The notes under the pieces were generated by a model that saw nothing but the letters and a program-made list of their open reading frames with translations, was not told where the DNA came from and did no database searches. A program made the position numbers and the translations under genes. From Nanobdellota archaeon (GTDB taxonomy: Archaea > Nanobdellota > Nanobdellia > Pacearchaeales > GW2011-AR1): a DNA stretch of 52,734 bases. Location: positions 1-52,734 of the forward strand of contig JBBSYO010000020.1 of NCBI GenBank assembly GCA_038045185.1, in the 5' to 3' direction. Of the stretch, positions 12,081 to 44,033 are shown piece by piece (within the stretch, counting starts at the first letter, position 1; the number at the start of each line of letters is the position of its first letter).

Positions 12081-12752
12081 TTAAAGTCTCTTCTGCTTAT
12101 CCCGCCAACTCCAATACTCTTCTTTCCCTATAACCACATGATCGACAACATTTATGTCAAGAGAGTTGCCTGCATTGATTATTCTTTTTGTAATATCTAA
12201 GTCTTCCCTTGAAGGAGTTGGGTCTCCGGAAGGATGATTATGAATCAAGACTATTTTAGAAGCTGAATTCTTCAGCACGGGCTTGAATATCGTCTTGGCA
12301 TCAAAAATAGTTGAATCCATAGTTCCCTTAGAAATCAACTGCTCGCCGATAATGTGATTCTTTGTATTAAGCATTAAAACAATAAAATGCTCTTGCTTCT
12401 CATCCTTCAATCTATCATGAAACAAATCAAAGACATCCTTGGCACAAGTTATCTTTTTAACTGGGTGTTTGGCTTGTGAGCGCCTCTTGCCTAATTCGGC
12501 CATGGCAAGCAATTGCATAGCTTTGCTGGGACCGATACCTTTGATGCTTTGAAGTTCAACTAAAGAACATTCGAATAACTTATCTATGCCATGTTCTGCA
12601 ATAAGTCGATTTGACATATCAATAACGTTCTCGCCTTTACTTCCTGTCCTCAAGATTATAGCGAAAAGCTCGGCATCGCTTAGCGCTTGCGGACCATGTT
12701 TTAGGAAACGCTCTCTCGGCCTGTTCTGCTTCGGCATGTCATGGATTCTCAT
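12081..12752 (-). CDS. radC: RadC-like JAB/MPN domain protein
   Basis: 223 aa. N-terminal MPKQNRPRERF, an HhH-like IKGIGPSKA, and the JAMM motif HNHPSGDPTPS. Confidence 0.9.
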   Translation of the reverse strand: MRIHDMPKQNRPRERFLKHGPQALSDAELFAIILRTGSKGENVIDMSNRLIAEHGIDKLFECSLVELQSIKGIGPSKAMQLLAMAELGKRRSQAKHPVKKITCAKDVFDLFHDRLKDEKQEHFIVLMLNTKNHIIGEQLISKGTMDSTIFDAKTIFKPVLKNSASKIVLIHNHPSGDPTPSREDLDITKRIINAGNSLDINVVDHVVIGKEEYWSWRDKQKRL

Positions 12753-12782
12753 GGCTATGAATAGAAAAAATAGTTAATAATT

Positions 12783-14045
12783 TTAACTCAATCCCTCATT
12801 TATTTTCTTTAAATTCCAAAGAATAACTTTTTGCAATGTTTGCAGGAGTTTTTCATCTTCTCTTTTTTTTGATCCTTTTGTATACCCCATATATTCATCC
12901 AATAATCCAAACGGGATGTCGAAAATTGGAATGCCTCTTGATTGCAATAAATGAAATGTTATTAATCTCGTTGTTCTGCTGTTTCCATCTGCAAACGGAT
13001 GAATGTGCTGGAATTCATTGTGGAAATAAACGGCAAAATTTAAAATTTCCCTAATAGATGATTTTTCTTTTCTGACAAACTCATCATACTTCTCAAATAA
13101 AGCATCTAATTCTCTTTTGATATTCTCTGCTTTAGTGATTTTAAAATCAGGATTCCCTTTAATATAGACTTCATCTGTTCTTATTTTGCCTGCAATTTTC
13201 GGAACATTTCTCATAGCTATTCCATGATAATTAAGAACAGACGCGATATTCAAAACCTTCTTTTCCGCGCTATCTTTCAGCATTTGCAGGATTGCTTCCT
13301 GATAATTCTTTACTTCATCAACATCCAGGCTCTTTAGATTGCCCGGGATAACCTTGTCCTGCAGTATTTTGAAAGTCTCTGATAATGTTATAGGATTTCC
13401 CTCTAATGAAAGGCTATGATAAACAAAAGAAATTTCAAAATCCCTTACAACTTTTCTGTATCCAGCCTCATCTTTTTTTCTTAATCTCTTAAAAATATTT
13501 AATTCCCTTTCTATCTCTTTGCTGTAAACATGGGTGCTTTCTGTTATAACTTCATGCTTATAACCAAAGTAAATAAGAAGATTGTTCAAAAGGATATTAT
13601 AGAATATCTTTGCCCTCAAGGGTTTTCTTGAAATAATAAGGACCAATCCAAATCTGTTTAATATTTCCAGGTACTTTTTAAAAGTTCTTGGGTGAGTATC
13701 CGCGTCTTTGGGGGTAATCTCCTCTTTTTGCAAAGCTTTGCTCAAAAATGCCGCAAAATTCTTGTCAAGTAAATAATTGTAACTAACATTGTTTTTAAGA
13801 CAATGCTGAATTATTCCATATAAGATTTCTGCCTTTTTGTTCATGTCTGCTTCAAAGCCATATTCAGTTTTTCTAAGGAGACCAAGTGCAACCAACTCTC
13901 TAAGCTGTTTATGTATTGCGTGATAATCTCCCTCAGATTTATTAAACCCCCTAACAACATCCACAGGCTTCATTGGGGCTCTGTTCTTATAGATTAATTC
14001 AAAAATGTCATATTTGGTGACCATAACAATACAGACTCTTTTCAA
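12783..14045 (-). CDS. Fic/DOC family protein with N-terminal wHTH-like region
   Basis: Fic motif HPFADGNSRTTR (HxFx[D/E]GNxRxxR). 420-aa ORF; the true start may be the internal MVTKYD. Confidence 0.85.
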   Translation of the reverse strand: MKRVCIVMVTKYDIFELIYKNRAPMKPVDVVRGFNKSEGDYHAIHKQLRELVALGLLRKTEYGFEADMNKKAEILYGIIQHCLKNNVSYNYLLDKNFAAFLSKALQKEEITPKDADTHPRTFKKYLEILNRFGLVLIISRKPLRAKIFYNILLNNLLIYFGYKHEVITESTHVYSKEIERELNIFKRLRKKDEAGYRKVVRDFEISFVYHSLSLEGNPITLSETFKILQDKVIPGNLKSLDVDEVKNYQEAILQMLKDSAEKKVLNIASVLNYHGIAMRNVPKIAGKIRTDEVYIKGNPDFKITKAENIKRELDALFEKYDEFVRKEKSSIREILNFAVYFHNEFQHIHPFADGNSRTTRLITFHLLQSRGIPIFDIPFGLLDEYMGYTKGSKKREDEKLLQTLQKVILWNLKKINEGLS

Positions 14046-14117
14046 CTTTAAAAAGCTTTCTATTCGGCATAAAAAGTAACATATTTTGTAACAAATAGTG
14101 CTAAATGTATCTATTGT

Positions 14118-14192
14118 CGTGCTTCAAAAAACGCTCTCTCGGCCTGTTTTGCTTCGGCATGTCATGGATTCTCATGGCTATGAATAGAAAAA
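14118..14192 (-). repeat. displaced radC 5' end (promoter-proximal region plus 19 codons), remnant B
   Basis: Minus strand reads MRIHDMPKQNRPRERFLKH and then diverges to a stop. It differs from intact radC at 6 nt in 5 codons, all synonymous. The upstream ggctatgaatagaaaaa is identical. Confidence 0.85.
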
Positions 14193-14633
14193 CTAATTAT
14201 TTGAATTCCTTTTAAGAGTAACCCTTTCTTCTTTTTGGTCAAAGATAATGACAAACTTATCAAAAAAGCCTGCTCTCCCAAGCAAAACAGGGATTTCCTG
14301 GCCGTCAAGGACAATTCCTTTGTTCAAGATAACTTTTACAGGCAGGTCAAATTTATATGTTTCATGAGGCTTTCCAATTTCTAAGAACAGTTTAGACTGC
14401 ACTGCTGGAACTTTTCCTCCGATACCAGCCGCATCTTCCTTTTTGCCGCTTAAATCAACCCCTAATAATTCTGCTACTTCTTCGGGTATTGCTGAGACAT
14501 CTGCTCCAGAATCGAGCAGAGCTACAAAAGTATATTTCCCGCCTGCCCCAGATAAGGTAACGGGAATTGAAGGAGACTTTACTTCTATATTATTTGGTCT
14601 TTTTACACGTTTGTAACGAAAGGCAAGGCTCAT
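14193..14633 (-). CDS. retropepsin-like (clan AA) aspartic protease
   Basis: 146 aa with ALLDSGADVSAIP (D-S/T-G-A active-site signature). Confidence 0.7.
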   Translation of the reverse strand: MSLAFRYKRVKRPNNIEVKSPSIPVTLSGAGGKYTFVALLDSGADVSAIPEEVAELLGVDLSGKKEDAAGIGGKVPAVQSKLFLEIGKPHETYKFDLPVKVILNKGIVLDGQEIPVLLGRAGFFDKFVIIFDQKEERVTLKRNSNN

Positions 14634-14843
14634 TTAGAAGATCATTGTTTCTTCACTTGGTACGCGGGCAATAATAAATTTCTTCCCGCCCGATAGAGTC
14701 TTTGCTCTCTCGACAACTTCCTTTAAGTTTCTGCCGTGTGCAAGTATTCTGTTTTCAGCTACAGCTATCCACTCCCCGGCATATTTACTAATATCGGTTT
14801 CCATAAAATAATTATAGGCAAGTTCCTGGGATGATTTTGTCAT
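14634..14843 (-). CDS. small partner protein (DUF5678-like by recollection)
   Basis: 69 aa with GEWIAVAENRILAHG...IIARVP. Its stop abuts the start of the aspartic protease ORF. Confidence 0.4.
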   Translation of the reverse strand: MTKSSQELAYNYFMETDISKYAGEWIAVAENRILAHGRNLKEVVERAKTLSGGKKFIIARVPSEETMIF

Positions 14844-14994
14844 ATTATTCTTTCTTAATGTCCTTATTTAAAGGTTCTCAAGCCTTCCAAGAAGTAGCAA
14901 CAAAGACAACTTTAGAAGAATACCTCCTTTTATTCATAGTATCAAATATACTCATTAATATATAAAGATTGTTCTTAACTATTGCTCGAGAATA

Positions 14995-15020
14995 TCATGG
15001 ATTCTCATGTGATTGATTAG
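14995..15020 (-). repeat. displaced radC 5' end, remnant C (MRIHD plus upstream-like bases)
   Basis: tcatggattctcatg is identical to the radC start region. The minus strand reads MRIHD and then ILEQ-stop. Confidence 0.5.
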
Positions 15021-15328
15021 AGGTTCATCTCCTCAAGCTCCTGGCTGACTAGGGATTCAGCTTCTTCTAACTGGAAAGCAACATCGGGATATTTTTTAAT
15101 GCTCTTATTTTTGAAGAATTCAATCGCAACCCTCTTTATATCCTGCTTATCTTCCTCATTCCAGTTGAATTCCTTCGCGCTTTTAATCGCAGAAGCCCGA
15201 TACTCGCTTTCCTCATAGAGCAAATGGCTCATTGACTCAGGCTTGTTTGTGTAACGAGCAAGCATCTTATGCAATACAACGTTGCCTATGATTTTCCCAA
15301 GCGTCTTTAAAGCACTATTTTTTCCCAT
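15017..15328 (-). CDS. hypothetical protein (103 aa)
   Basis: ORF overlapping the 3' end of the upstream nucleotidyltransferase ORF by 22 nt; no motif recognised. Confidence 0.35.
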   Translation of the reverse strand: MGKNSALKTLGKIIGNVVLHKMLARYTNKPESMSHLLYEESEYRASAIKSAKEFNWNEEDKQDIKRVAIEFFKNKSIKKYPDVAFQLEEAESLVSQELEEMNL

Positions 15329-16128
15329 TTTGACTCGAGAATCTCCTTATCTGTTTTTTCAGACAAGTTTCTTATATACATTAGTGCCCGCTTTTTTTCC
15401 AATTTAGACGCGCTGTTGCTTTTCAGCTGTTTCATAAGCCTCTCGCCCAGTTCGTTCCTGACGCTCTCATTTAACATTTTGTTATCCACAATTTTCCTTA
15501 ATAAAAGCCTAACAAGCATTACATTTCTGAGCGATTGGTAAATTTCCCTGCCTGCTGAATCTTCGTCATCAATGTCGCTCCAGTCCAGCTTCATCCGAAG
15601 GTCTAATTTTGACAGATCTGCCTTTGGGAGAAGATTGAACGTGCCGTGAATTGCCTTAAAATCCTTTAACTGGTAAATTAAAGAAGGGCTATGGGAGTAT
15701 TGGGACAAAATTGAATCTTTCGAGTAAAGTTGCATATCAAGGTTAAGGGCTGCTTTTTTCCCTTTTTTCTCAATCGTTTCTATCAACTCTCTCTTTTTGC
15801 TCTTTGGCAGTTCTTTCTTTGTCACTACAATCACATCTATATCATTATATTCCTTATAATTGCTCTGCACCGCAGAACCGCAGATAATTATCGAATCTAA
15901 GTTAGGCACGTTATCTAATACAATCTTTTTTATTTTATTCTCAATTGCCCTTGCTTTTTGGTTGTATTCTATCCTATTCAGGATTTCGCCTGTATTTATT
16001 TTTCCTATCTCCAGCAGCTTGGGTCTTATGCTCTTGCTGAGAATATTTGCTTCATTCTGAGTAAGACTAACCCCACTAAGTTTCTTGGCGATTATTTCAT
16101 TCTCCCTTTCTGTCATTATCTTAACCAT
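15307..16128 (-). CDS. nucleotidyltransferase-fold (MNT-like) protein with helical C-terminal region
   Basis: IICGSAVQSNYKEYNDIDVIVV matches the minimal NTase signature GS-x(9-11)-D-x-D. Confidence 0.6.
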   Translation of the reverse strand: MVKIMTERENEIIAKKLSGVSLTQNEANILSKSIRPKLLEIGKINTGEILNRIEYNQKARAIENKIKKIVLDNVPNLDSIIICGSAVQSNYKEYNDIDVIVVTKKELPKSKKRELIETIEKKGKKAALNLDMQLYSKDSILSQYSHSPSLIYQLKDFKAIHGTFNLLPKADLSKLDLRMKLDWSDIDDEDSAGREIYQSLRNVMLVRLLLRKIVDNKMLNESVRNELGERLMKQLKSNSASKLEKKRALMYIRNLSEKTDKEILESKWEKIVL

Positions 16129-16170
16129 ATAATATCTTATAGTATTAAGTGCTATTTAAAGGCCTCTATC

Positions 16171-16371
16171 TTAGGATTCTGCTTCGGCATGTCCTTGATT
16201 CTCATTTTTCTTCTTTTTCTTAAGAATTATCTTGCCATCTTTAGCATGTATATCAAGATAATCCCCTTCTTCAATGCCTGCTTCTCTTATTATTAAGGGC
16301 GGAATATTAACCATATATTTGTAATAATCCTTATTTTTGTGCTTGCGCAGGAATCTTTTTTGCACTTTCAC
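16171..16371 (-). CDS. AbrB/SpoVT-type (MazE-like) small DNA-binding protein
   Basis: GTG start. YMVNIPPLIIREAGIEEGDYLDIHAKDGKIIL resembles a swapped-hairpin AbrB domain. The 3' end runs into radC remnant D. Confidence 0.5.
   Translation of the reverse strand: MKVQKRFLRKHKNKDYYKYMVNIPPLIIREAGIEEGDYLDIHAKDGKIILKKKKKNENQGHAEAES
16177..16205 (-). repeat. displaced radC 5' end, remnant D (MRIKDMPKQN)
   Basis: 29 nt with 2 mismatches to the radC start region (ttctgcttcggcatgtccttgattctcat). Confidence 0.6.
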
Positions 16372-16404
16372 TTTTAGACATAGTGATTTTATTATATAAA
16401 GCTT

Positions 16405-16437
16405 GAGGCGCCGAAAGGTTTTTATATTTGAGGCGCC
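16405..16437 (+). promoter_or_regulatory. BRE/TATA promoter bracketed by direct GAGGCGCC repeats
   Basis: GAGGCGCC at 16405-16412 and 16430-16437 flank ccgaaaggtttttatattt. The GTG start of the AbrB-like ORF is at 16448. Confidence 0.5.
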
Positions 16438-16447
16438 TAATTAAATA

Positions 16448-16651
16448 GTGAAAAAGAAGTTTCTTGGATTCGGATGGAAAAGCAAAGTTGCATTAAAAAG
16501 AGTAACTTATAGTATTTCAATTAACAAACTTGTTGCAGAAGGAAATTGCCTCGAGAAAGGCCAGGAGCTATATTGCTATCTTGCAGAAGATGAAAAAAAC
16601 AGGCAGATAATTGTCATTTACTTAGACGGAAAAAAGAGGGACAAGAATTAG
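16448..16651 (+). CDS. AbrB/SpoVT-like small protein
   Basis: 67 aa, GTG start. SISINKLVAEGNCLEKGQELYCYLAEDEKNRQIIV resembles an AbrB-type fold. Divergent from the 16171-16371 AbrB-like ORF. Confidence 0.4.
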   Translation: MKKKFLGFGWKSKVALKRVTYSISINKLVAEGNCLEKGQELYCYLAEDEKNRQIIVIYLDGKKRDKN

Positions 16652-16676
16652 CATGAGAAAGAAAGTTCATAATTTA

Positions 16677-16747
16677 GGAATGCGGATTTGCCAGCCGGAC
16701 TCTTATCAAGTATCGGCTGTCGGGTTCAACTCCCGAGTGTTCCACCA
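16677..16747 (+). other. tRNA-like element: acceptor stem, perfect T-arm, discriminator and encoded CCA; D and anticodon arms non-canonical
   Basis: GGAATGC pairs with GTGTTCC (two G-U). T-arm TCGGG-TTCAACT-CCCGA, then A-CCA. The middle 36 nt could not be folded into standard D and anticodon arms. Confidence 0.35.
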
Positions 16748-16756
16748 GCGAAACTT

Positions 16757-16777
16757 AGGCCGAAAGACCTTTGTTTT
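16757..16777 (+). terminator. GNRA-type hairpin followed by a T-tract
   Basis: aggccgaaagacct followed by ttgtttt, 10 nt after the CCA of the tRNA-like element. Confidence 0.4.
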
Positions 16778-16894
16778 ACTGGATATTAAATCCTAAATAG
16801 TATTTATATCTTTCTTCACGAAAAAAGACGATGTTTCTGCGGGTGCATAAACATACGTTATACGAATATAAATGACTTATATTTCAAAGTTGTA

Positions 16895-17248
16895 GTGATT
16901 AAAATGAGTGAAAGCCAATCAAGATATAGTATTGTTGAAAGATTAACCCAGATGAAACTGGATATTATCTCAGAAAAACTAGATTTAGAGGCAGACGTAA
17001 AGCAAAAACAGCAAAAAGTCGAGCAGCTTAAAAAAGAGCTTGCCGATTGGGAGAGCGATATACAGCAAGATACAGAAAGAAACAGAAGATTAAAGAAAAG
17101 AGAAATTGAAAAAACAGATATGGAGAGCGAAAATGCAAAAGAAAGAAAAAATGCTAAAGAAGAAGCCTTAAATGAAAAGCTAGAGGCTATTGACAGAGCC
17201 TTAGAAAGAATTGAAGAAATAAGCAAAACCTCTCCAACAAATCAATAA
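16895..17248 (+). CDS. coiled-coil protein (117 aa)
   Basis: Heptad-rich E/K/L sequence. The antisense ORF 16858-17226 is judged a shadow. Confidence 0.4.
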   Translation: MIKMSESQSRYSIVERLTQMKLDIISEKLDLEADVKQKQQKVEQLKKELADWESDIQQDTERNRRLKKREIEKTDMESENAKERKNAKEEALNEKLEAIDRALERIEEISKTSPTNQ

Positions 17249-17278
17249 TTATGCGCTCGAACAAACAAAAAAGGCCAT

Positions 17279-17524
17279 GTGCCTGAGCTCCAAAATGGAA
17301 AAAATATGCAATGCCAAGTGCAGCATCCTGTAAAGGTTACATCTGATAATTTGGGGGCGCCGAAAGGCGCTCCCGGTATTCAATTAGCAATGGGAAGACC
17401 ACATAAAAAAGGCTCAAGCAGCGAGCCAAAGAAATTTAGGTGCTCTGTCTGCGGAAGACTTTATAGAATGGATTGGGCTATTCAGAATCACGAAAAAGTA
17501 TGCCCTTGGAAATTATTGGCATAG
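17279..17524 (+). CDS. small C2HC/C2H2-like zinc-finger protein
   Basis: FRCSVCGRLYRMDWAIQNHEKVC. The real start may be ATG 17390 (MGRPHKK). Confidence 0.35.
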   Translation: MPELQNGKNMQCQVQHPVKVTSDNLGAPKGAPGIQLAMGRPHKKGSSSEPKKFRCSVCGRLYRMDWAIQNHEKVCPWKLLA

Positions 17525-17571
17525 CCGAAAGCCTTAAATACATGAAAGATTAAGTCTTACTAAGTAATACT

Positions 17572-17829
17572 ATGGAATCAGTAACTATCAAGCTTGAAAG
17601 CGATTTTCTCAAAGCTTTAGAGAGAACTATGAAAAAACACCGCTATATGACCAAAACAGAGTTCATACGTCAGGCAATGCGCGACAAAATGAACGAATTG
17701 GAAAAAGAAGAAACATTAAAAAATGTAGAAAAGCTGTTCGGCTCTTCAAAACACAAGACTACTGATGAGCAACTGCATGAAGCAGGAGAGAGGGCAGTCA
17801 GGATTTTAGAAAAGAAATTCAGGACCTAA
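17572..17829 (+). CDS. ribbon-helix-helix (CopG-like) protein
   Basis: N-terminal VTIKLESDFLKALERTMKKHRYMTKTEFIRQAMRD fits an RHH strand plus two helices. ccgaaagccttaaata promoter about 30 nt upstream. Confidence 0.6.
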   Translation: MESVTIKLESDFLKALERTMKKHRYMTKTEFIRQAMRDKMNELEKEETLKNVEKLFGSSKHKTTDEQLHEAGERAVRILEKKFRT

Positions 17830-18241
17830 GCAGTTCATTAGTTCTATAAGACACAATTATATCAGTTATCTGCTTAAAATGATGATCCAGAGTCACAAGA
17901 ACTGCTCTGCTGTCGCGCGCAATAAGCGCATGCAAAGCATCTTTTCGCGGAATTTTTCTCTTTAATGAAAGATCTTTTGATATTCCTATCTGTTTATCTG
18001 TTGCTTCTAGAAAAATAAGAATCTTACGCAAAGGCATAATCAGCGATTCTAATTCGTAACGAGAATATCCTGCTTCCTCAAGCTCTATTATCGTTAAATC
18101 AGAATAAAGAATTCTATCATTTTTGCTAATTATTTTACTTATAAGTTTCCGAGCCCATGCGCCTTTCGGAAGATTAGGCTCATCCCTGTTTTCAAAGAAA
18201 TCAAGCCAAACAGAAGTATCAAAATAGAACCTCTTTTCCAT
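17819..18241 (-). CDS. PIN-domain nuclease (VapC-like)
   Basis: FYFDTSVWLDFF N-terminal acidic strand and C-terminal LVTLDHHF. Confidence 0.7.
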   Translation of the reverse strand: MEKRFYFDTSVWLDFFENRDEPNLPKGAWARKLISKIISKNDRILYSDLTIIELEEAGYSRYELESLIMPLRKILIFLEATDKQIGISKDLSLKRKIPRKDALHALIARDSRAVLVTLDHHFKQITDIIVSYRTNELLRS

Positions 18242-18298
18242 CAGAAAATCAAGAACAATTGCTAATTAAACTTTCTTCTCGGGCAGCCTTGCTCGGGC

Positions 18299-18315
18299 TT
18301 AATAACCTTTTTATA
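18299..18315 (+). promoter_or_regulatory. promoter motif TTAATAACCTTTTTATA (copy 2 of 3)
   Basis: Its TATA part lies about 25 nt upstream of an in-frame GTG at 18337. Confidence 0.5.
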
Positions 18316-18336
18316 ACTCGGTTCTTTATACATATC

Positions 18337-18990
18337 GTGCCGTTCAAACTCTCCCCCTCAACATTAAGCTTAATGCATGAATGCCCGCGATGCTTCTGGC
18401 TCACTAGCCACAAGATTTGGGCGAGACCTGCAGGCATATTCCCCTCGCTTCCAAGTGGAATGGACGGGATACTCAAAGCGCATTTTGACAAGTTTATGGA
18501 AAAGGGCACGTTACCACCTGAACTATGCAATAATTCAGAATGCAAGAACTTAAAGCTATTTGATGACGCAGAACTCTTGAAAGAGTGGAGAAACTCAAGA
18601 AGGGGATTATGGTTCGAAGATAAAGAGGAGAACGTGCTGCACGGAGGAATTGATAACCTGCTTGTAAACAAGGCAAATGGCAAGCTTATTGTTCTTGATT
18701 ATAAGACACGAGGATTTCCATTAAAAGACGACACTCATGAGCACTATCAGGACCAGCTTAATATTTATGCTTGGCTTCTTAAGACGTTAGGACGCAAAGT
18801 GGAAGATTTTGCTTATTTGCTGTTCTATCATCCAAAGGAAGTCCTTGAAACAGGGGAAGTGGTGTTTAATACTGACTTGAAGAAGATGAAGGTTGTGCCT
18901 GAAGATGCTGAAAAGCTGTTCAACAAGGCGATTAAGATGCTAAATGGCGAGTGCCCGAAGAAGATGTGCGAGTGGTGCGAGGGACGATAA
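18337..18990 (+). CDS. Cas4-like PD-(D/E)xK nuclease with Cys cluster
   Basis: N-terminal CPRCFW, VLDYKT (D-x-K), QLNIYAWLL (QxxxY), and C-terminal CPKKMCEWC. ORF opens at 18259, but GTG 18337 fits the promoter spacing. Confidence 0.7.
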   Translation: MPFKLSPSTLSLMHECPRCFWLTSHKIWARPAGIFPSLPSGMDGILKAHFDKFMEKGTLPPELCNNSECKNLKLFDDAELLKEWRNSRRGLWFEDKEENVLHGGIDNLLVNKANGKLIVLDYKTRGFPLKDDTHEHYQDQLNIYAWLLKTLGRKVEDFAYLLFYHPKEVLETGEVVFNTDLKKMKVVPEDAEKLFNKAIKMLNGECPKKMCEWCEGR

Positions 18991-19038: not shown

Positions 19039-20031
19039 CTAAGACAATCTCTTCATTTCCAGCCAACTAATAAGTTTAGTCTTATCGGGAGGCACATCTT
19101 TCCTTGAATAATATACAAAATCCATTCTTTCATAGCATTTAGGACAATAACAAACTCGTCCTTCAGAAGCTTTTATGGAAATTGATTTTGCTATACTTGA
19201 CTTTAGAAATTTCTTTTTTCTCCTTGAATAAGCGCCGTAATATCTTGCAAGCTTCTGATTCTTTTCTGGAACATGCTGAATAATAGCAGAAATAAAATCA
19301 TGCACAAGCATGATTTTATAGTGTATCTTTTCATCATGATCTTTGTAATAGAATTTAACAGCCTCTTTATTGTAGGCAATTATCCTTGAGTTTGCTATTG
19401 CTGGATGCCGAACATATCTGCCCAAATATCTGGCTAAGCCCTTGCGAGAGGATATTCTATCCTCTCTGACATAAACACAAAAGCCATTAGGATATTTTCT
19501 ATATGCTTCCTCAATAATTCCTTTAGGAAGATATTTCTTCAGTTTTTTGAGGATATTATATTCCCATTTTTTATGCAGAGCATTATATGGAATATAATTT
19601 CCCAACGGAACAAATTTTCCCTGTTCATCAAATCCCCCTTCAGTAACAATAGTATGAACATGGGGTTGATTCTTCAAATCTTTTCCGAATGGATGAAACA
19701 CTTCAATAACTCCAGGAATTAAATCTCTTCTTTTCATATTAGAAAATACTTCTCGAATTGTTTTATATGCAACATCCATCAAAATCTTGTACAGCTTTCT
19801 ATCTTCTTGAAAATATTTCCAGAGCATATCTGGAATTCCAAAGACAAGATGCCTATGGAAGATATTTTTCTCTAATTTTTCAGCTAACATTGATGCCCAT
19901 TGGTCAGCATACCTCTTGCCACAGCAAGAGCATAGCCTTGAATTGCAGCCAAATGGGAGAAATCTATATTCGTTGCAATTCTTGCAATAATACCAAAATC
20001 CTCCTCTGCTTTCATCTTTGCAAGAAAGCAT
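19039..20031 (-). CDS. IS91-family (HUH Y2, rolling-circle) transposase
   Basis: Zn-binding CKNC...CNSRLCSCCG, HUH-type QPHVHTIVTEGG, and Y2-region RYLGRYVRHPAIANSRI and ARYYGAYSRR. Confidence 0.8.
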   Translation of the reverse strand: MLSCKDESRGGFWYYCKNCNEYRFLPFGCNSRLCSCCGKRYADQWASMLAEKLEKNIFHRHLVFGIPDMLWKYFQEDRKLYKILMDVAYKTIREVFSNMKRRDLIPGVIEVFHPFGKDLKNQPHVHTIVTEGGFDEQGKFVPLGNYIPYNALHKKWEYNILKKLKKYLPKGIIEEAYRKYPNGFCVYVREDRISSRKGLARYLGRYVRHPAIANSRIIAYNKEAVKFYYKDHDEKIHYKIMLVHDFISAIIQHVPEKNQKLARYYGAYSRRKKKFLKSSIAKSISIKASEGRVCYCPKCYERMDFVYYSRKDVPPDKTKLISWLEMKRLS

Positions 20032-20210: not shown

Positions 20211-20409
20211 TTTATACTTTATATACTAATAATTATTTGCGACGAAAATAATAATGCGATAAAGAAACTAACTTAAATTATTTCTTATAAAATTATTATT
20301 TCTAAAAAATGTTTCTTTAGTATAAAATCTTAGCTGGGCTGTGCTGTTTATAGTGCGTCATACAATACAGCACCGAAAGATATAAATAAAAGCAAATTCC
20401 TAAAACAAT

Positions 20410-21826: not shown

Positions 21827-21898
21827 GGGTTCAACTACGTGAACTCGAAGAGTTAACGTTCCCGCGGAACAGAGTTCTGCGAGGACCCACCTTCCGCT
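21827..21898 (+). other. second copy of the last 23 nt of tRNA-His, split by a 49-nt hairpin-rich insert
   Basis: gggttcaact (21827-21836), then a 49-nt insert (GAACTC...GTTCC-cgc-GGAAC...GAGTTC nested stems), then cccaccttccgct (21886-21898). Confidence 0.6.
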
Positions 21899-22088
21899 TC
21901 CCCCTACAAATTAAAATAATAATGTAAGGGGAAAGAATTAAAGATTCTTGACAATTTGAATAGCTTGTAACATAGTCAAGTAAATTCTTTATAACTATCA
22001 ACAAATAGTTTACAACAACAAACCAAACGATTGATAGTGGCTGCCGCGCCGAACGGTTTCGTTCGGAGTGCTCCTTCCGCTTTTATCT

Positions 22089-22420
22089 ATCAAAAAGTCC
22101 TTGAGTTTACCACACCTTAAAACGTCAGGAATCATGGATTCCTGAGCGCCTCGAAATTCAAAGAATTTCTCAGCCTCAAGAACTATTGTTCTTGATGGCC
22201 ATCAAAGATTTGCATCTTTGAGGGGTGTGGTTTGTGTGGGACTCACCAAGAACTTGGTTCTTGGGTGCACGAAGAACCGAAGGTTGCTTCGTGTTTGGAT
22301 GCAAGAAAATCATTGCTAAAGATGATTTTCTGCACAGAGAATTACGAGAGCAAGCAATTCTCTTGTGCTCAAGAAGCGACCACACCATGAATGGTGTGGT
22401 TTTCGTCAAGCTTCTTGACA
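22089..22420 (+). repeat. structured hairpin-modular element E1 (long form)
   Basis: Starts ATCAAAAAGTCCTTGAGT. Homologous along its length to 35119-35350, with indels that are whole hairpins. At least 9 stem-loops are readable. Confidence 0.8.
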
Positions 22421-32957: not shown

Positions 32958-32962
32958 GTGCA

Positions 32963-33055
32963 ATCAAAAAGTTCTTGAGTTCATTGTGTGAACTTTTGGA
33001 TGCTCAGGAATGCTGCGCCCTAAAGGGCGTGGTTTGAACCACATTCCTGACATCA
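32963..33055 (+). repeat. structured element E3 (short form)
   Basis: ATCAAAAAGTTCTTGAGT... Hairpin AAAAGTTC/GAACTTTT, then TCAGGAATG...CATTCCTGA. Collinear with 52522-52680. Confidence 0.75.
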
Positions 33056-34911: not shown

Positions 34912-35118
34912 CGATTAGGGCAAGGGACGCTGATATTTAGCTGTTTACGCCTTTGCTACATGGAAAAAATTTTCCAATATTCGAAAGTTTTCAATCCAAA
35001 AAGTGCCTAATCACCATAAGATATTTCTGGGAAAAAGATATCTGTAACACCCGAAGATACAACAATACATTAAGGCAGAGAACTTTATATAGAACAAAAG
35101 AGAAAGGAAAGTATGAAA

Positions 35119-35350
35119 ATCAAAAAGTCCTTGAGTCTACCACAGCTTAAAACCTCAAGAACTGCAGTTCTTGATGGCCGTCAAAAATCTGAACTTAAGA
35201 AGATTTTTGAGGGGCGTGGTTTGTGTGGGACTTTGGGATGCAAGAGAAATCAGAAGATTTCTCGGCACAGAGAATTGCACGAGGAAAAAGCAATTCTCTT
35301 GTGCTCACGAACGCCACACTCTAAAGAGTGTGGTTTTAACGTTCGTGACA
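35119..35350 (+). repeat. structured element E2 (long form), directly upstream of pyrH
   Basis: Homologous to E1. tttatata at 35084-35091 lies about 27-30 nt upstream of its first base. Confidence 0.8.
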
Positions 35351-35364
35351 GAAGAACTTTGGTT

Positions 35365-36036
35365 ATGAGCTTGGGCGGCAGTGTCATCATACCAGAGCAA
35401 AAAAATGACAATTTTTTGCTGAAACTGCGCGCCACACTGAAGAAATATTATCGCACGCACAAGTTCGTGCTCGTCTGCGGAGGCGGTTCAATTGCCCGCG
35501 CGTACATAACCCTTCTTGAAAAAGAGCACAAAAACCATCGCGAGCAATCAGAGGCAGGCATTCGCGCAACGCGCATGAATGCAGAGCTTATCATGCAAGT
35601 ATTCGGAAAAGAGGCGAATTCAGCACTCCCGAAAAACATGAAATCAGTCAGGTCAGAGCTTCACAAAAATAACGTTGTCGTCTCTGGAGCACTCCGCTAT
35701 GCCCCGCATCAGACTTCAGACACCACTGCCGCTAAACTAGCAGCCTATCTGAAATCAGAATTCGTCAACCTAACCAACGTTCCTGGTCTATACACCAGCG
35801 ACCCGCGCAAAAACAAAGCAGCAAAACTAATCCCACACATCTCATGGAAAGAATTTGAAGCAAAGGCGCATGCAATAAGATTCAGTCCAGGAGAACATTT
35901 TGTCCTTGACCAGAAAGCTTCGACACTCATCAGGAAACACAAGATAAAAACATTCATTATGGGGAAAGATGCAAACAACCTCAAAAAATTCCTTAATAAT
36001 GAAAAGTGGCTCGGAACGCAAATCGACTCCCAATGA
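35365..36036 (+). CDS. pyrH: archaeal-type UMP kinase
   Basis: MSLGGSVI..., VLVCGGGSIARAYI, GIRATRMNAELI. The ORF-track extension back to 35113 only reads through element E2. Confidence 0.8.
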   Translation: MSLGGSVIIPEQKNDNFLLKLRATLKKYYRTHKFVLVCGGGSIARAYITLLEKEHKNHREQSEAGIRATRMNAELIMQVFGKEANSALPKNMKSVRSELHKNNVVVSGALRYAPHQTSDTTAAKLAAYLKSEFVNLTNVPGLYTSDPRKNKAAKLIPHISWKEFEAKAHAIRFSPGEHFVLDQKASTLIRKHKIKTFIMGKDANNLKKFLNNEKWLGTQIDSQ

Positions 36037-37930: not shown

Positions 37931-39559
37931 ATGGCAAAGCTAAAATTTCCGCGCAAACTGATTGAACAGCACCTTAAGTTAGACAACTCAACAATAACCG
38001 ACCTTAGTTTATTTGGCACCCCGCTCGAATCACTAACTAATGAAGAAGTGGAACTCGAAATATCTGCCAACCGCCCCGACCTTCTTTCGGCGCGCGGATT
38101 TCTTCGCGCCTTTCAGGCTTACAAAGGCAAAAAAACAGGGCTCAGAACATACGCCGTAGCGCACGACCGTAAACCGAACTACACAGTCGTTATAGACAAG
38201 GGCGTTAAATCATGTCCCCGACCGCACATAGCCTGTGCCGTAGTTAAAAACCTTTCGCTAACAGATGCGACTCTTAAAGAGATTATACGATTACAAGAAA
38301 AGTTAGCACTCACGCTTGGCCGTCAACGCAAGAAATGCGGCATAGGTATCTATCCAATGGAAAAAATAAATTTCCCAATCAGATACGAATCTCGTAAGCC
38401 ATTAGATATCGAGTTCACGCCTCTCGGTTTTACAAAATCAGCAAACGCTCACCAGATTCTGCAAAAACACCCGATAGGAAAAGAATATGCACACCTGCTA
38501 GATGGCGCGGATAGATTTCCCATATTCATCGACGCAAAAAAACAGATTCTTTCCATGCCTCCGATAATTAACAGCCAGAACACTGGTCACGTCACCGCGC
38601 AAACAAAAGATGTCTTCATCGAATGCTCAGGTCAGGACATTACAATACTCAATGCCGCGCTATCCGTCTTCGTCACGTTTTGTGCAGAAATAGGTGGCAC
38701 GATTGAAGCAGTTGAAATGCGCGGCGATAATAAACATATCTCGCCAGACCTTAAAGCAAAAACAATAAAGCTGAATAAAGAATCAATTGAACGCACACTC
38801 GGCATCACTCTAACTGAAAAAGAAATCGCACAGCTTCTCTCGCGGATGGGGCACGATTACAATAAAGGAGTCGTCACCTACGGTTGCTGGCGCATAGATA
38901 TCTTACACGAAGCAGATATCATTGAAGATATTGCTATTGCCTACGGCTATGATAAATTCACACCCATCATTCCAGGCATTTCCACAGTAGGAGAAGAAGC
39001 GTTCGAAAGCAAAGCCGAAACCAAAATAATCGAATCTTTGGTTGGCTTGGGCTTTCTCGAAACTACATCATTACACTTTATTACAGCAGAAGAAAAAGAA
39101 AGGGAAAAAGTAGAGCACCCCATAGAAGTCGAAGACCCGCGCACCGAGTATGCTTATCTAAGACCCAACCTGCTAATACCGACGCTAAGAACACTGGCGC
39201 ACAACCTCCACGCAGAATATCCTCAAAAAATATGCGAGACAGGAGCAGTATTCACCAGAAAACTTAATCAAATCAGAGAAGAACAGCACCTCATAATTGC
39301 GCACACGCCAGCCAACTTTACCATCATAAAGCAAGAACTTGATTATCTATTCCGTATGCTCAATCTCACTTACGAACTAAAAGAAACACAGGTCAACGGA
39401 CTAATAGAGGGCCGCACAGCATCAGTCATCTTTGAAGGCAAAGAAATCGGCTTCATTGGAGAATTTCATCCCTCAACATTGCGGGAATGGCATCTCAAAA
39501 TGCCTCTTGCCGTAGCAGAGATTAATCTAATACATATCTATGAGATATTGAAGAAATAA
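37931..39559 (+). CDS. pheT: phenylalanyl-tRNA synthetase beta subunit (archaeal type)
   Basis: 542 aa immediately after pheS. B3/4- and B5-like regions (ISANRPDLLS, IGIYPM). Confidence 0.9.
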   Translation: MAKLKFPRKLIEQHLKLDNSTITDLSLFGTPLESLTNEEVELEISANRPDLLSARGFLRAFQAYKGKKTGLRTYAVAHDRKPNYTVVIDKGVKSCPRPHIACAVVKNLSLTDATLKEIIRLQEKLALTLGRQRKKCGIGIYPMEKINFPIRYESRKPLDIEFTPLGFTKSANAHQILQKHPIGKEYAHLLDGADRFPIFIDAKKQILSMPPIINSQNTGHVTAQTKDVFIECSGQDITILNAALSVFVTFCAEIGGTIEAVEMRGDNKHISPDLKAKTIKLNKESIERTLGITLTEKEIAQLLSRMGHDYNKGVVTYGCWRIDILHEADIIEDIAIAYGYDKFTPIIPGISTVGEEAFESKAETKIIESLVGLGFLETTSLHFITAEEKEREKVEHPIEVEDPRTEYAYLRPNLLIPTLRTLAHNLHAEYPQKICETGAVFTRKLNQIREEQHLIIAHTPANFTIIKQELDYLFRMLNLTYELKETQVNGLIEGRTASVIFEGKEIGFIGEFHPSTLREWHLKMPLAVAEINLIHIYEILKK

Positions 39560-39560
39560 A

Positions 39561-39690
39561 GAAAATCGTTGAAATTTCCTACCGAACCGGAGCAAGCTCC
39601 GCGGTATTCGGAAATTTCTACTCCACGATTTTCTAATTAGAATTTTTACTCCACAGCAAGCTGTGGGGTATTCAACCCAAAAATTCTAAT
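39561..39690 (-). repeat. 130-bp double-hairpin element, copy 2 (inverted relative to copy 1)
   Basis: Starts 2 nt after the pheT stop and ends overlapping the ATG at 39689. 126/130 identity to copy 1 after reverse-complementing. Confidence 0.9.
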
Positions 39691-40941: not shown

Positions 40942-41013
40942 AGCCTCAGGGGGGAATTGAACCCCCGACTTCAACATTACCAATGTTGCGTTCTACCGCT
41001 GAACTACTGAGGC
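40942..41013 (-). tRNA. tRNA-Thr (GGT)
   Basis: GCCTCAG-TA-GTTC-AGCGGTA-GAAC-G-CAACA-TTGGTAA-TGTTG-AAGTC-GGGGG-TTCAATT-CCCCC-CTGAGGC-T. Confidence 0.9.
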
Positions 41014-42006
41014 AAGTCTGTCAAGATGTCGCTCGTTAGAAAAACCTATAAGATCCATCCAACGCTTCACCTGATTAATACCGTAAATCTCTATTATATA
41101 AATTTGTCTTTTTTCATTAAAAGTATTATATAGGCTAAAATGTCGAGATAAATAAGAAACTAATTGATTATACAAATCTTTACTCACAGTCTGTAAAGCT
41201 ATTCTAGGATAATATAATTTGTAACTTTTTCTTTTATCTATAAAAACACAACCATCAGTATCAAATATGCCTCGGATAGTTGCTCTAACGAGTTCATCCT
41301 TAGATTGCATAATTCTATCGGGAATGGCAATAGTATGAGCTTTCTTGCCTGGAACGAATCCAAAACCATGTTTAAAAAAATTAAAAAGGTCTTTAGAATA
41401 AAAAACAATCCTCACACCATTAACCTTTCCATAAGAAGAATAAATATGAGGTTTTAAATCGGGAACAACAGATTTGAAAGTGGGAATTATTAATTCATTA
41501 TAATATTGCACATCATATCTTCTATCGCCTGCAAATTCTATATGATACAATTTATTATTATAAAGGTTAAAACATCCATCCCCGATAAAAGCACCTACAC
41601 ATTGACATATTGAATGAGATAATTGTAAAGAAGCTAAAGAATCTTTAAAGGAAGAATCTTCTATTTTATGATACCTCTTAATATTTTTTAATCCCGTTTT
41701 CCTGCCCTCATCAAATTTCTTAAAGTTAATAAGATAAGCCTTTTTTCCCCCCATAACTTGCCCAAAATTATCAGGTAGTTTTTCAATGTTAGAAGAAACT
41801 TTTATTTTATCAGCTTCAGATAAAAATTCAATCAATCTTACAAATAAACTTTCAGGTATAAAGCAAGATCCATTTCTATAATGTTCCAAGGTGGATTTTG
41901 GTATTCCAAATTTGCCTCTTAGACCTTTCCAAGAGAGATTAAAAGATATCTTAACAGAATCAAATAAGTAATTTCTAGTTAAATTGTCCCTAATTTCTAT
42001 TCTCAT
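40993..42006 (-). CDS. double-motif LAGLIDADG homing-endonuclease-like protein
   Basis: Motifs CVGAFIGDGCF and IRGIFDTDGCV. Start taken at MRIEIRDN (TATA aaatatataaa about 27 nt upstream). The last 7 codons and stop lie inside tRNA-Thr. Confidence 0.8.
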   Translation of the reverse strand: MRIEIRDNLTRNYLFDSVKISFNLSWKGLRGKFGIPKSTLEHYRNGSCFIPESLFVRLIEFLSEADKIKVSSNIEKLPDNFGQVMGGKKAYLINFKKFDEGRKTGLKNIKRYHKIEDSSFKDSLASLQLSHSICQCVGAFIGDGCFNLYNNKLYHIEFAGDRRYDVQYYNELIIPTFKSVVPDLKPHIYSSYGKVNGVRIVFYSKDLFNFFKHGFGFVPGKKAHTIAIPDRIMQSKDELVRATIRGIFDTDGCVFIDKRKSYKLYYPRIALQTVSKDLYNQLVSYLSRHFSLYNTFNEKRQIYIIEIYGINQVKRWMDLIGFSNERHLDRLASVVQR

Positions 42007-42038
42007 ATTTGATAACACGACTCGGGTTTATATATTTT

Positions 42039-42060
42039 GTGCTTCCTGAGCTACAGAGGC
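42039..42060 (-). pseudogene. displaced tRNA 5' fragment (acceptor 5' strand plus D-arm start) resembling tRNA-Thr
   Basis: GCCTCTGTAGCTCAGGAAGCAC versus tRNA-Thr GCCTCAGTAGTTCAGCGGTAGAAC. Its own TATA (tttttatagg) lies about 25-30 nt upstream. Confidence 0.65.
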
Positions 42061-42092
42061 ACACACACCTACCATAAAGTTCCTATAAAAAT

Positions 42093-42702: not shown

Positions 42703-42775
42703 AGCCCCGTCGTATAGTGGTCAAGTATTCGGGCCTCTGGCGCCCGAGACCCAGGTTCGAATCCTGGCGGGGCTA
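42703..42775 (+). tRNA. tRNA-Pro (TGG)
   Basis: AGCCCCG...CGGGC-CTCTGGC-GCCCG...CCAGG-TTCGAAT-CCTGG-CGGGGCT-A. TATA gatttttaag about 28 nt upstream. Confidence 0.9.
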
Positions 42776-42838: not shown

Positions 42839-42850
42839 CTGGCGGGGCTA
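42839..42850 (+). repeat. 12-nt duplicate of the tRNA-Pro 3' end
   Basis: ctggcggggcta is identical to 42764-42775, separated from it by a 63-nt hairpin-containing spacer. Confidence 0.7.
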
Positions 42851-42909
42851 TCCATTTTCCAAAAGGCTTAACACAACTCTTTTAAACCGTCTTCCGCTCT
42901 CCCCTTCAT

Positions 42910-42934
42910 GCCCTTGTAGTCTAGTGGTCAAGGA
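42910..42934 (+). pseudogene. displaced tRNA 5' fragment (acceptor 5' strand plus D-arm) resembling tRNA-Glu
   Basis: GCCCTTGTAGTCTAGTGGTCAAGGA versus tRNA-Glu GCTCTTATCGTCTAGATGGTCAAGGA. TATA-like ctcttttaaacc about 27 nt upstream. Confidence 0.65.
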
Positions 42935-42966
42935 AACTATTTATAGTAGCGACGCATTTAGAATAA

Positions 42967-43863
42967 GTGAGAATTCGCTTAGAAAAAGGAAAACAGCGAG
43001 AGTTAATTGAACAGGCTAAAATGAATTTAACCTGGAATCAATTAGGCAAAAGAGTGAATCTAAATTCTCATTATCTTCAAAATGAATTAAGAAATGAACA
43101 AAAACTCATTTCAGAAGAGCTATTTAATCATTTATTATCATTGACAAAGAAAGATTATTCATGCTTTATCGCGGAAAAGCTCGCAGATAACTGGGGAAGA
43201 TCAAAGGGCGGGAAAAATTCTAAGGGCAATACTAAAGTTATTTCTCCTTCGAAGAAGAATATTTATTTAGCCGAATTAATCGGAATCATACTGGGAGACG
43301 GACATGTTGAGAAACGCGTAAATGACACAACCAGGTGTTATACTCTTAAAATTGCAGGTCATATAAAAAATGACTGCGCGTATTTATCTTATTACGTGAG
43401 CAACCTCATTAAGCAGATATATGGAGAATTTCCTTCTATCCGTAAAGATGCCAATTATGGTGTAATGTGGGCTGTCCTGCACGGCAGAGGTGTAGTGGAA
43501 GATCTAACAAATAAGGGCTTGGGAACAGGCAACAAGAAAAAGAATAATCAAGGAATTCCCGATTGGATTAAAGAAAACAAATCCTTTCTTAAAGTTTGCC
43601 TTCGTGGTCTTATTGACACAGACGGATCAATCCATCGGATTTCAAAGAAAAATAAAAATCTCAGAATTTGTTTTACCAGTTACATTCCTCAATTACTAAG
43701 TGATGCCAGAGAAGCATTTATTTGCGCAGAATATTTTCCTTCAAAAATAATTAAAGATAATCAGTTCTTCATTACGCGTAAAGAAAACATTGCTCGTTAT
43801 GTGAAAGAAATAGGATTTGCCAACGAAAAACATTTAAAAAGACTTGAAAGATTAGGTAGCTAA
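42967..43863 (+). CDS. double-motif LAGLIDADG homing-endonuclease-like protein
   Basis: Motifs LAELIGIILGDGHV and LRGLIDTDGSI. GTG start about 25 nt after TATA ctatttatag. The stop abuts the first base of tRNA-Glu. Paralogous to 40993-42006. Confidence 0.8.
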   Translation: MRIRLEKGKQRELIEQAKMNLTWNQLGKRVNLNSHYLQNELRNEQKLISEELFNHLLSLTKKDYSCFIAEKLADNWGRSKGGKNSKGNTKVISPSKKNIYLAELIGIILGDGHVEKRVNDTTRCYTLKIAGHIKNDCAYLSYYVSNLIKQIYGEFPSIRKDANYGVMWAVLHGRGVVEDLTNKGLGTGNKKKNNQGIPDWIKENKSFLKVCLRGLIDTDGSIHRISKKNKNLRICFTSYIPQLLSDAREAFICAEYFPSKIIKDNQFFITRKENIARYVKEIGFANEKHLKRLERLGS

Positions 43864-44033
43864 GCTCTTATCGTCTAGATGGTCAAGGACGACGCCCTCT
43901 CGAACGCCGAGTGTTACATCGTCGAGATTATACACTCAGTCCCTCTGCGGACAGGCATTCCTATTATCGGGCTTGCATTCTTGCAAGCCCTTGGAGAACG
44001 GCGTAAACCCGGGTTCGAATCCCGGTGGGAGCA
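43864..44033 (+). tRNA. tRNA-Glu (CTC) with an intron of about 95 nt in the anticodon loop
   Basis: GCTCTTA-TC-GTCT...GGAC-G-ACGCC-CTCTCG / intron / GGCGT-AAAC-CCGGG-TTCGAAT-CCCGG-TGGGAGC-A. The intron contains the 9-bp hairpin GGGCTTGCA/TGCAAGCCC. Confidence 0.8.

Follow-up and report, generated by a model that had tools for sequence, protein, structure and literature searches.

Displaced gene starts in a contig of a Nanobdellota archaeon: probable homing of endonuclease-tRNA modules into tRNA genes, and a separate type of defence cassette

Introduction

How can foreign genes settle repeatedly at the starts of cellular genes and leave these genes intact? The question is raised by a 52,734-nt stretch of contig JBBSYO010000020.1 (assembly GCA_038045185.1, Nanobdellota archaeon), called the window in the following, in which displaced 5' ends lie upstream of four complete genes: radC, tRNA-Thr(GGT), tRNA-Glu(CTC) and the gene of a structured RNA. 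A first-pass annotation of the sequence had suggested that one common mechanism may lie behind them. All four loci were confirmed, with corrections given below, and they share one footprint, consisting of the old promoter and a stub, then cargo on the same strand and then the intact target. As already described in that annotation, cargo and target have the same orientation and the target is undamaged at all four loci. We consider it probable that two unrelated processes left this footprint: homing with replacement of the target gene at the two tRNA genes, and recombination of small cassettes at radC and the RNA gene. The window is archaeal in character: its leaderless start codons and its tRNA starts are preceded by TATA boxes at a distance of 21-30 nt. 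The nearest relatives of its radC and of the two endonucleases described below are proteins labelled Pacearchaeota or 'Nanoarchaeota' (DPANN archaea), many of them derived from Hainich groundwater metagenomes.

Results and Discussion

The tRNA-Thr(GGT) locus

The complete tRNA-Thr(GGT) gene (40942-41013, minus strand; identified by ARAGORN and, with 72.7 bits, by Rfam) overlaps the end of an open reading frame (ORF) for a LAGLIDADG endonuclease of 337 aa counted from the ATG (40993-42006, minus strand; Pfam LAGLIDADG_3, 2e-9), whose last seven codons lie inside the tRNA gene. Upstream of the endonuclease gene we found a 5' stub of a resident tRNA-Thr gene (GCCTCTGTAGCTCAG, 42046-42060, minus strand), which comprises 15 nt and not the 22 nt previously assigned to it. 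The stub has kept its original TATA box (42082-42091), located 21 nt upstream, and is followed by the endonuclease gene's own TATA box (42026-42037). In 14 of its 15 positions it is identical to the tRNA-Thr of contig L093, in which the gene order is that of the window: tRNA-Thr, two small ORFs (50-55% identity), tRNA-Gln, the endonuclease linked to tRNA-Glu, tRNA-Glu and DisA. At this syntenic site the tRNA-Thr start (GCCTCTATAGCTCAG) stands directly behind a TATA box and there is no insert. The acceptor stem of the intact window tRNA-Thr (GCCTCAG/CTGAGGC) differs from the stub in both strands, and its 3' acceptor strand would mispair with the GCCTCTG of the stub. Owing to the conserved C-terminal codons of the ORF, which specify GFSNKRH, the tRNA is preceded at about 17-31 nt by a T/A-rich stretch; the endonuclease transcript and an embedded promoter are both candidate routes to the tRNA.

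The tRNA-Glu(CTC) locus

The complete tRNA-Glu(CTC) gene (43864-44033, plus strand) contains a 96-nt intron and was recognized by ARAGORN with the option -i; default ARAGORN and Rfam both miss it. It is abutted by the stop codon of a second LAGLIDADG endonuclease gene (298 aa, GTG start, 42967-43863, plus strand; Pfam LAGLIDADG_3, 4e-9). Further upstream, a 25-nt 5' stub of the resident tRNA-Glu could be read from the sequence (42910-42934, plus strand), in agreement with the length proposed before, and it likewise retains its promoter (CTTTTAAACC, 42879-42888, plus strand). Downstream of the complete gene lies a decayed 3' stub with the T loop and the acceptor strand (44087-44109, plus strand), which had gone unrecorded. 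Its CAGGGGC pairs with the GCCCTTG of the 5' stub in seven of seven positions, one of them a G-U pair. In contig L114, which does carry the Thr insert, the Glu site is empty: an intron-containing tRNA-Glu has its own promoter (CTTTTTAAACC) and there is no endonuclease gene. The promoter stranded upstream of the window stub is of the same kind and has the same spacing.

The 5' stub also resembles the tRNA-Gln of L093, but its assignment as a relic of tRNA-Gln was rejected in favour of tRNA-Glu on the basis of the L114 promoter match, the complementary 3' stub and the clean case of L208 described below. The sequence of the intron (43904-43999) is conserved in L092, L093 and L114, with or without the endonuclease, and is missing from the tRNA-Glu of the marine contig L208.

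At both loci the element, composed of promoter, endonuclease gene and complete tRNA gene, is located inside a resident tRNA gene. The earlier description of a replacement 5' end understated what arrives at these loci, which is a complete replacement tRNA gene.

The endonuclease-tRNA module in related loci

The first-pass annotation had proposed a scan of relatives for duplicated gene starts. Among 80 metagenome loci encoding relatives of the Thr-linked endonuclease, 34 distinct loci, most of them with relatives of at least 43% identity, have a tRNA-Thr(GGT) on the same strand that lies from 17 nt inside to 28 nt after the end of the ORF. At least 100 nt of upstream sequence was available for 28 loci. 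Of these, 18 have the junction in its strict form, in which a 15-nt tRNA start with the terminal sequence ...GCTCAG is continued by the conserved element end (A)TAACACAAA-TATA; visual inspection revealed decayed versions in eight more, and two showed nothing. A 3' stub consisting of variable loop, T arm and acceptor strand follows 5-40 nt after the complete tRNA in about 13 of 32 loci. The stubs were identified by comparative evidence, since with their length of 15 nt or an internal indel they escape an ungapped scan for tRNA 20-mers.

Five loci have both stubs in clean form. Of the seven positions of the 3'-stub acceptor strand, 7, 7, 7, 7 and 6 can pair with the 5' stub in these loci; with the complete tRNA lying between the two stubs, no more than 4-6 can. 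The stub pairs vary from locus to locus (GCCTCCG/CGGAGGC, GCCTCTA/TAGAGGC, GCCACAA/TTGTGGC and GCCTGTG/CACAGGC). Since they differ and are nevertheless complementary, and since dead fragments cannot co-vary, the resident genes had diverged before they were invaded. This pattern points to repeated, independent insertion at one position of tRNA genes that were already different.

The Glu-linked family behaves in the same manner. The ORFs of L092, L093 and L208 (49-60% identity) extend to or into a tRNA-Glu(CTC), and stubs of the D arm are located just before the TATA box of the endonuclease gene. L208 is the cleanest case; its 3' stub begins 10 nt after the complete tRNA-Glu and spans nt ~27 to 73, so that the resident tRNA-Glu was split at nt 25/26 with little or no loss. 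The junction is constant across lineages, after nt 15 in tRNA-Thr and after nt 25 in tRNA-Glu.

The two window endonucleases are 26% identical to each other and belong to DPANN families of at least 125 (Thr-linked) and at least 694 (Glu-linked) proteins. Both have the two LAGLIDADG motifs with a conserved acidic residue in each: G146-D147-G148 and T254-D255-G256 (GDG, TDG) are invariant in 32 sequences of the Thr family, G110-D111-G112 and D217/D219-G220 (GDG, DTDG) in 36 sequences of the Glu family. Weak profile matches to solved structures were obtained, namely to the putative homing endonuclease 2dch (7e-5 for the Thr-linked ORF) and to the VMA intein and an I-DmoI chimera (1e-3 to 3e-3), which suggests that the closest relatives of solved structure are archaeal homing endonucleases. 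A profile search of viral contigs with the tRNA-Glu endonuclease family gave remote LAGLIDADG matches only (23-31% identity). The distribution of the inserts is sporadic, with filled sites and, at the same fixed points, the empty syntenic sites of L093 (Thr) and L114 (Glu).

Remoter relatives of the Thr-linked endonuclease (33-44% identity; L151, L152, L154, L172, L181 and L182, and L148, L153, L155, L157 and L162-L166) show other geometries, some being located directly downstream of tRNA-Thr(CGT) and others converging on a tRNA-Thr(GGT) of the opposite strand. The entire family seems to be tied to tRNA-Thr genes.

Probable homing with gene replacement at the tRNA loci

The mobile unit that we propose for the tRNA loci would consist of a TFB-recognition element (BRE)/TATA promoter, the LAGLIDADG endonuclease gene and a complete tRNA gene. 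The endonuclease would cut an insert-free resident tRNA-Thr(GGT) or tRNA-Glu(CTC) gene, and repair would copy the unit into the break, after nt 15 or nt 25, respectively. The resident gene would be left as a 5' stub with its promoter and, temporarily, a 3' stub, and the tRNA of the element would take over decoding. As the endonuclease ORF reaches the new tRNA gene or extends into it, the cell may need transcription of the selfish gene in order to obtain the tRNA.

The stubs are what one would expect to remain after the element was copied into a broken resident gene. Together with the invariant catalytic aspartates, the constant junction and the existence of empty sites, they support break repair at these loci. 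Two non-overlapping stubs around a complete gene exclude a single conservative exchange between two attachment (att) sites. Double-strand-break homing fits the tRNA loci, and site-specific integration does not.

Several points weigh against this interpretation. Cleavage is an inferred step. The tRNA brought by the element is very similar to the resident tRNAs, the anticodon arm of the window tRNA-Thr being identical to that of the empty L093 allele, and the escape of the element from self-cleavage is unexplained. No 3' stub is present at the tRNA-Thr locus of the window. Moreover, the tRNA-Glu family, with its at least 694 members, is so widespread that its spread may be largely vertical or the protein domesticated.

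The last point leads to the best-surviving alternative, according to which the LAGLIDADG genes are immobile, domesticated and vertically inherited partners of the tRNA genes, for example in a regulatory role such as that of WhiA, and all stubs date from a single ancient event. Such a role would suit the very large size of the family, the linkage of ORF and tRNA down to about 43-50% protein identity and the conserved abutment or overlap of the ORF end with the tRNA, where the C-terminal codons might also serve as promoter of the tRNA. Non-functional relics of a single event should, however, not come as stub pairs that differ by lineage and are mutually complementary, syntenic relatives lack one or the other insert, and both catalytic aspartates are invariant. 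We regard domestication as unlikely, although it is the least unlikely of the alternatives considered here.

The radC cassette array

The intact radC gene (12081-12752, minus strand; full length, Pfam RadC 4e-43, UPF0758_N 8e-28) is the target gene and anchor of a defence island. Its 5' region from nt -24 to +56 (copy 0, 12697-12776, minus strand) was detected as a repeat by repeat search and self-BLAST, and the three displaced starts reported before were confirmed at 14150-14175, 14982-15021 and 16180-16205. The 26-nt radC start ATGAGAATCCATGACATGCCGAAGCA recurs without mismatch in the first of these and with two mismatches in the third; no such match occurred in 100 shuffles.

Copy 1 (14120-14199, minus strand), which reads MRIHDMPKQNRPRERFLKH and then stops, shares with copy 0 a core identical in 63 of 64 positions (98%) within an 80-nt repeat (E=3e-27). 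Past this core, it continues with four codons (TTT TTG AAG CAC versus TTC CTA AAA CAT) before the sequences diverge. Because these codons differ only by synonymous changes, the sequence suggests that copy 1 is a segment of another radC allele that was homogenized across the recombination core. Copy 2 (14982-15021, minus strand) is short and decayed, with 75% identity over 40 nt and an exact match to ATGAGAATCCATGA. Copy 3 (16150-16229, minus strand) overlaps the 3' end of an AbrB/MazE-like ORF (16171-16371; Pfam MazE_antitoxin, 6e-9), and further radC-start copies were looked for upstream of it and none found.

The starts delimit three cassettes, each with its own TATA box, all with their cargo on the radC strand and without a nuclease gene. 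Cassette A encodes a protein with winged helix-turn-helix and Fic domains (12783-14045, minus strand; Pfam Fic 3.7e-14; PADLOC PDC-S04 5e-28, SoFic 4e-21), cassette B a DUF5678 protein of 69 aa and an aspartyl protease of 146 aa (14193-14843, minus strand; Pfam DUF5678 9e-14, Asp_protease_2 2e-7; PADLOC PDC-M52B 4e-6), and cassette C a nucleotidyltransferase of 273 aa with a 103-aa partner (15017-16128, minus strand; Pfam NTP_transf_2 1.4e-7; PADLOC PDC-S09). The partner, which in an MNT-HEPN toxin-antitoxin system would be a HEPN protein, matched neither HEPN nor any other family in Pfam, NCBIfam and PADLOC scans. The cargo matches families of defence candidates listed by PADLOC.

The same three-cassette array is present in two strains, L001 and L002 (98.9-99.6% identity). 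Duplicated radC starts are absent from relatives with 72-77% radC identity; their radC genes all adjoin defence genes, among them restriction-modification genes. An exact look-up of the window radC returned no record, and a profile search of genome contigs with the radC alignment gave bacterial radC and no DPANN locus among the matches listed.

In the window, radC is situated in the middle of a defence island (1303-12036 and 16171-18990). On one flank are hsdR, hsdS and hsdM of a type I restriction-modification system, together with inserted ORFs, and on the other are genes for PIN, ribbon-helix-helix (RHH), AbrB and PD-(D/E)XK proteins. Variable defence genes adjoin radC in distant relatives, too.

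The structured-RNA gene and its vapBC insert

Between the genes for ScpA and ribosomal proteins lies the gene of an intact structured RNA of about 170 nt, the two ends of which pair (26371-26539, minus strand; fold -61.4 kcal/mol, z = -3.6). Comparison with Rfam at permissive thresholds gave no family at E<10. Its first 70 nt (26470-26539) form a perfect direct repeat, as had been suspected, with a displaced segment at 27380-27449 (minus strand; E=3e-33), which is still located behind a TATA box (27470-27479). The two copies enclose an insert of 840 nt with its own TATA box (26540-27379, minus strand), which codes for VapB (AbrB-like, 26904-27161; NCBIfam AbrB domain, 4e-4) and VapC (26546-26926; Pfam PIN, 5e-11). 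The ORFs overlap by 23 nt, and a small AbrB-type antitoxin gene that overlaps a downstream PIN toxin gene is characteristic of a type II VapBC toxin-antitoxin system.

This insert is polymorphic within the species. Five contigs are filled (L102, L103, L105, L106 and L108), and two contigs of the same species, L104 (a SPAdes-style NODE contig) and L107 (Logan), are free of vapBC and contain precisely one copy of the 70-nt segment. The immediate flanks of L104 and L107 are 100% identical to the window, with differences of about 0.1-0.3% elsewhere, and the two empty alleles come from two independent assemblers. Contigs from other samples stop at the 70-nt repeat, as expected where the filled form is present.

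The insert also contains an element of 135 nt with two hairpins (27216-27350, minus strand; fold z = -7.1), both with the loop GCAAGC. A second, inverted copy of 97% identity is located between pheT and an ORF of 402 aa (39556-39690, plus strand). It resembles either a miniature mobile element or a structured RNA.

Proposed cassette recombination at radC and the RNA gene

For these two loci we propose that small toxin-antitoxin or defence cassettes with their own promoters, and without a nuclease, would enter and leave by recombination within a 64-70-nt 5' segment of the target that the cassette also carries. A circular cassette would be inserted in the manner of Campbell, by host homologous recombination or by a recombinase acting in trans. 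Recombination between the direct repeats would reverse the event, and serial insertion would have built the three-cassette array at radC. We hold this view of cassette gain and loss with modest confidence.

A number of observations count against it. Circular forms of the cassettes were not seen; the cassette-only contig L207 (830 nt) was tested as a circle and proved not to be circular, as it breaks inside the repeats. The left and right arms of the four nuclease-free cassettes share no motif except TATA boxes. At radC, the strains L001 and L002 are both filled, and the species yielded no empty site. Assemblers can collapse a loop of repeat, insert and repeat, a possible source of the empty vapBC alleles, and presence and absence of vapBC are compatible with insertion and with deletion.

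The contrast with the tRNA loci bears on the single mechanism suggested by the first-pass annotation, which we could not uphold: the radC and RNA-gene cassettes are free of nuclease genes, have long and nearly identical repeats and are species-specific or polymorphic within the species. Its preference for break repair over site-specific recombination is borne out at the tRNA loci, by the catalytic aspartates, the recurrent junction, the empty sites and the non-overlapping stubs, but not for these cassettes. In 109 related loci (482 kb), only three long direct repeats of at least 25 nt (L151, L171 and L173) and two shorter ones were found outside this species. The long-repeat type is therefore not widespread in that sample. 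In L171, another DPANN contig, a perfect 126-nt direct repeat (2360-2485 and 2612-2737, spaced by 252 nt) adjoins a short LAGLIDADG relative.

Recombinases, an IS91-family transposase and duplication as alternatives

A single site-specific recombinase with specificity for gene 5' ends, encoded elsewhere in the genome and acting on non-autonomous elements comparable to integron cassettes or dif modules, could have inserted the cargo at all four loci. Simple direct repeats of the kind expected of an att core bound the inserts at radC and the RNA gene, comparable to attL and attR, the vapBC cassette is precisely present or absent, and the 3'-end repeats of tRNA-His and tRNA-Gln (see below) are classic integrase-type footprints in this genome. 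At the tRNA loci, however, the stubs are different, non-overlapping parts of the gene around a complete copy, which a single conservative exchange would not produce, and no core or arm motif is common to the repeats at radC, at the RNA gene and at the tRNA genes. Among the ORFs scanned across the 52.7 kb, no tyrosine or serine recombinase was detected. We judge this alternative improbable, slightly more so than domestication.

The statement of the first-pass annotation that no recombinase was in sight does not hold, as the window contains a gene for a Y2 (HUH, rolling-circle) transposase of the IS91 family (19039-20031, minus strand; Pfam Y2_Tnp 2e-32, Zn_Tnp_IS91 3e-13), situated outside every cassette. 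A 24-nt sequence on its 5' side (20212-20235) recurs at the start of the window (36-59). The related contig L001 ends at the position of this gene, and given this break the element is probably multicopy. Rolling-circle circular by-products have been proposed for ISCR elements, and the cassettes could be by-products of this kind that carry neighbouring genes and were integrated by homologous recombination. The transposase gene lies 2.7 kb from the radC array on the same strand, and the 70-nt repeat ends in GAAC, which is a target tetranucleotide of IS91. On the other hand, the cassettes contain no IS91 sequence or ends, the radC junctions end in neither GAAC nor CAAG, and the scheme leaves the tRNA loci unaccounted for, which makes it very unlikely. 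Unrelated tandem duplications with decay, or assembly artefacts, without any insertion process are hardly credible: displaced radC copies 2 and 3 are decayed and metagenome assemblers do mis-join repeats, but the repeats enclose foreign cargo that has promoters of its own and is no duplicate of the target, the same architecture occurs across independent samples and assemblers, and the same junction in dozens of lineages.

Comparison with known systems

Two unrelated processes thus remain our preferred explanation, and the closest published case to the first of them is found in Caldiarchaeum subterraneum. There, an insert of 1.87 kb stands behind a 5' fragment of tRNA-Thr(GGU), and its ORF immediately precedes, on the same strand, a second tRNA-Thr(GGU) that is complete and differs from the fragment. 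The population contains both filled and empty alleles, and a further copy adjoins tRNA-Thr(CGU) (Sugahara et al., 2012; PMC3293823). The authors saw in the insert a transposable element whose recombinase is of the pNOB8 kind; at no point did they interpret it as a homing endonuclease (PMC3293823). Compared by published description only, it resembles the window locus in the 5' tRNA-Thr fragment and the same-strand ORF abutting a complete tRNA-Thr, but the fragment has 27 nt, the insert also supplies an intron, and neither a 3' stub nor a family-wide survey was reported. Our literature search found no description of LAGLIDADG-tRNA modules in DPANN archaea.

Free-standing homing endonuclease genes and intronless homing are known from phages, for example SegB in the tRNA gene region of T4 (PMC2988022; see also PMC13096335). 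These genes, too, lie outside introns and inteins, near tRNA genes, and are spread by break repair together with flanking DNA. The phage enzymes, however, are GIY-YIG proteins located intergenically in phage genomes; those of the window are LAGLIDADG proteins in a cellular archaeon, inside a tRNA gene and with a complete substitute. In the mitochondrial atp6 gene of Allomyces, a mobile endonuclease ORF is said to have brought along a substitute gene terminus, reportedly in work of Paquin and co-workers from 1994. Common to both cases are an endonuclease ORF accompanied by a foreign copy of the displaced target part and an original that is left as a pseudo-fragment. The Allomyces type concerns the 3' end of a protein gene, in frame and in organelles, whereas in the window a whole tRNA gene is brought and the 5' stub retains the promoter.

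In pNOB8-type archaeal elements, the tRNA is directly adjoined by a recombinase gene of the same orientation (PMC3293823). Elements of the SSV and pNOB8 types likewise carry a tRNA segment, reconstitute the tRNA and leave a partial direct repeat at the other border. The window loci differ from them in the lack of an integrase, in two different stubs around a complete gene and in the size of the inserts, which is only 0.8-1.3 kb. The radC array has its nearest parallels in integron cassettes and XerCD-dependent dif modules, which also consist of one- or two-gene cassettes, often with toxin-antitoxin or defence genes, in one orientation, stacked at one site, with the recombinase not encoded inside. 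At radC, by contrast, part of the target gene itself serves as the repeat, and the cassettes have individual promoters. Hallmarks of integrons were not detected: no IntI was found, there are no attC- or dif-like sites, and the cassette ends have no common structured site or motif.

Other repeats in the window

Downstream of the tRNA-His gene, its 3' end (CCACCTTCCGCTT) occurs two more times (21828-21898 and 22072-22084); the first of these copies resembles a T arm into whose loop 49 nt have been inserted. The terminal 12 nt of tRNA-Gln (CTGGCGGGGCTA, 42764-42775) recur 75 nt downstream (42839-42850), and the two copies bracket a short hairpin-containing insert that is absent in L093. As the 3'-end footprints of tRNA-His show, targets are not confined to 5' ends, and the exclusive restriction to 5' ends assumed in the first-pass annotation has to be dropped.

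A family of hairpin-rich repeats (22089-22400, 32962-33040, 35113-35370 and 52522-52690) starts with ATCAAAAAGTCCTTGAG and contains GGCG(C/T)GGTTTG. In a called amino-acid-kinase ORF, the first ~80 codons consist of one such copy. Because the repeat supplies these codons and the Pfam domain begins only at residue 82, the N-terminus of this ORF is probably non-coding.

Significance

The cassettes at radC and vapBC are ordinary in their toxin-antitoxin and defence content; noteworthy is their turnover, which is recombinase-free and anchored to gene starts. They indicate that small DPANN genomes can gain and lose such genes at fixed hot spots with no integrase nearby, and the polymorphism of filled and empty sites can be followed directly in Hainich groundwater populations.

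At the tRNA loci, a homing endonuclease would occupy an essential gene harmlessly in a third way, by bringing a spare copy of the gene instead of residing in a self-splicing intron or an intein, and this design is apparently common across an entire archaeal radiation. Taken further, and tentatively, since we rate this wider proposal below the two-process explanation and just short of even, DPANN archaea may hold an unrecognized class of homing elements, in which a free-standing LAGLIDADG gene with a complete substitute tRNA invades an essential tRNA gene, enters diverged lineages again and again, and makes tRNA expression dependent on its own transcription. In parallel, recombinase-free cassettes would use a conserved 5' piece of a gene as a portable attachment site. 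The Caldiarchaeum element of 2012 would be a member of the class, which offers a new reading of that published puzzle, and the class would be a concrete and testable source of archaeal tRNA gene fragments and possibly of the long-debated split tRNA genes. If this is true, the endonucleases are natural nucleases that recognize tRNA-gene sequences.

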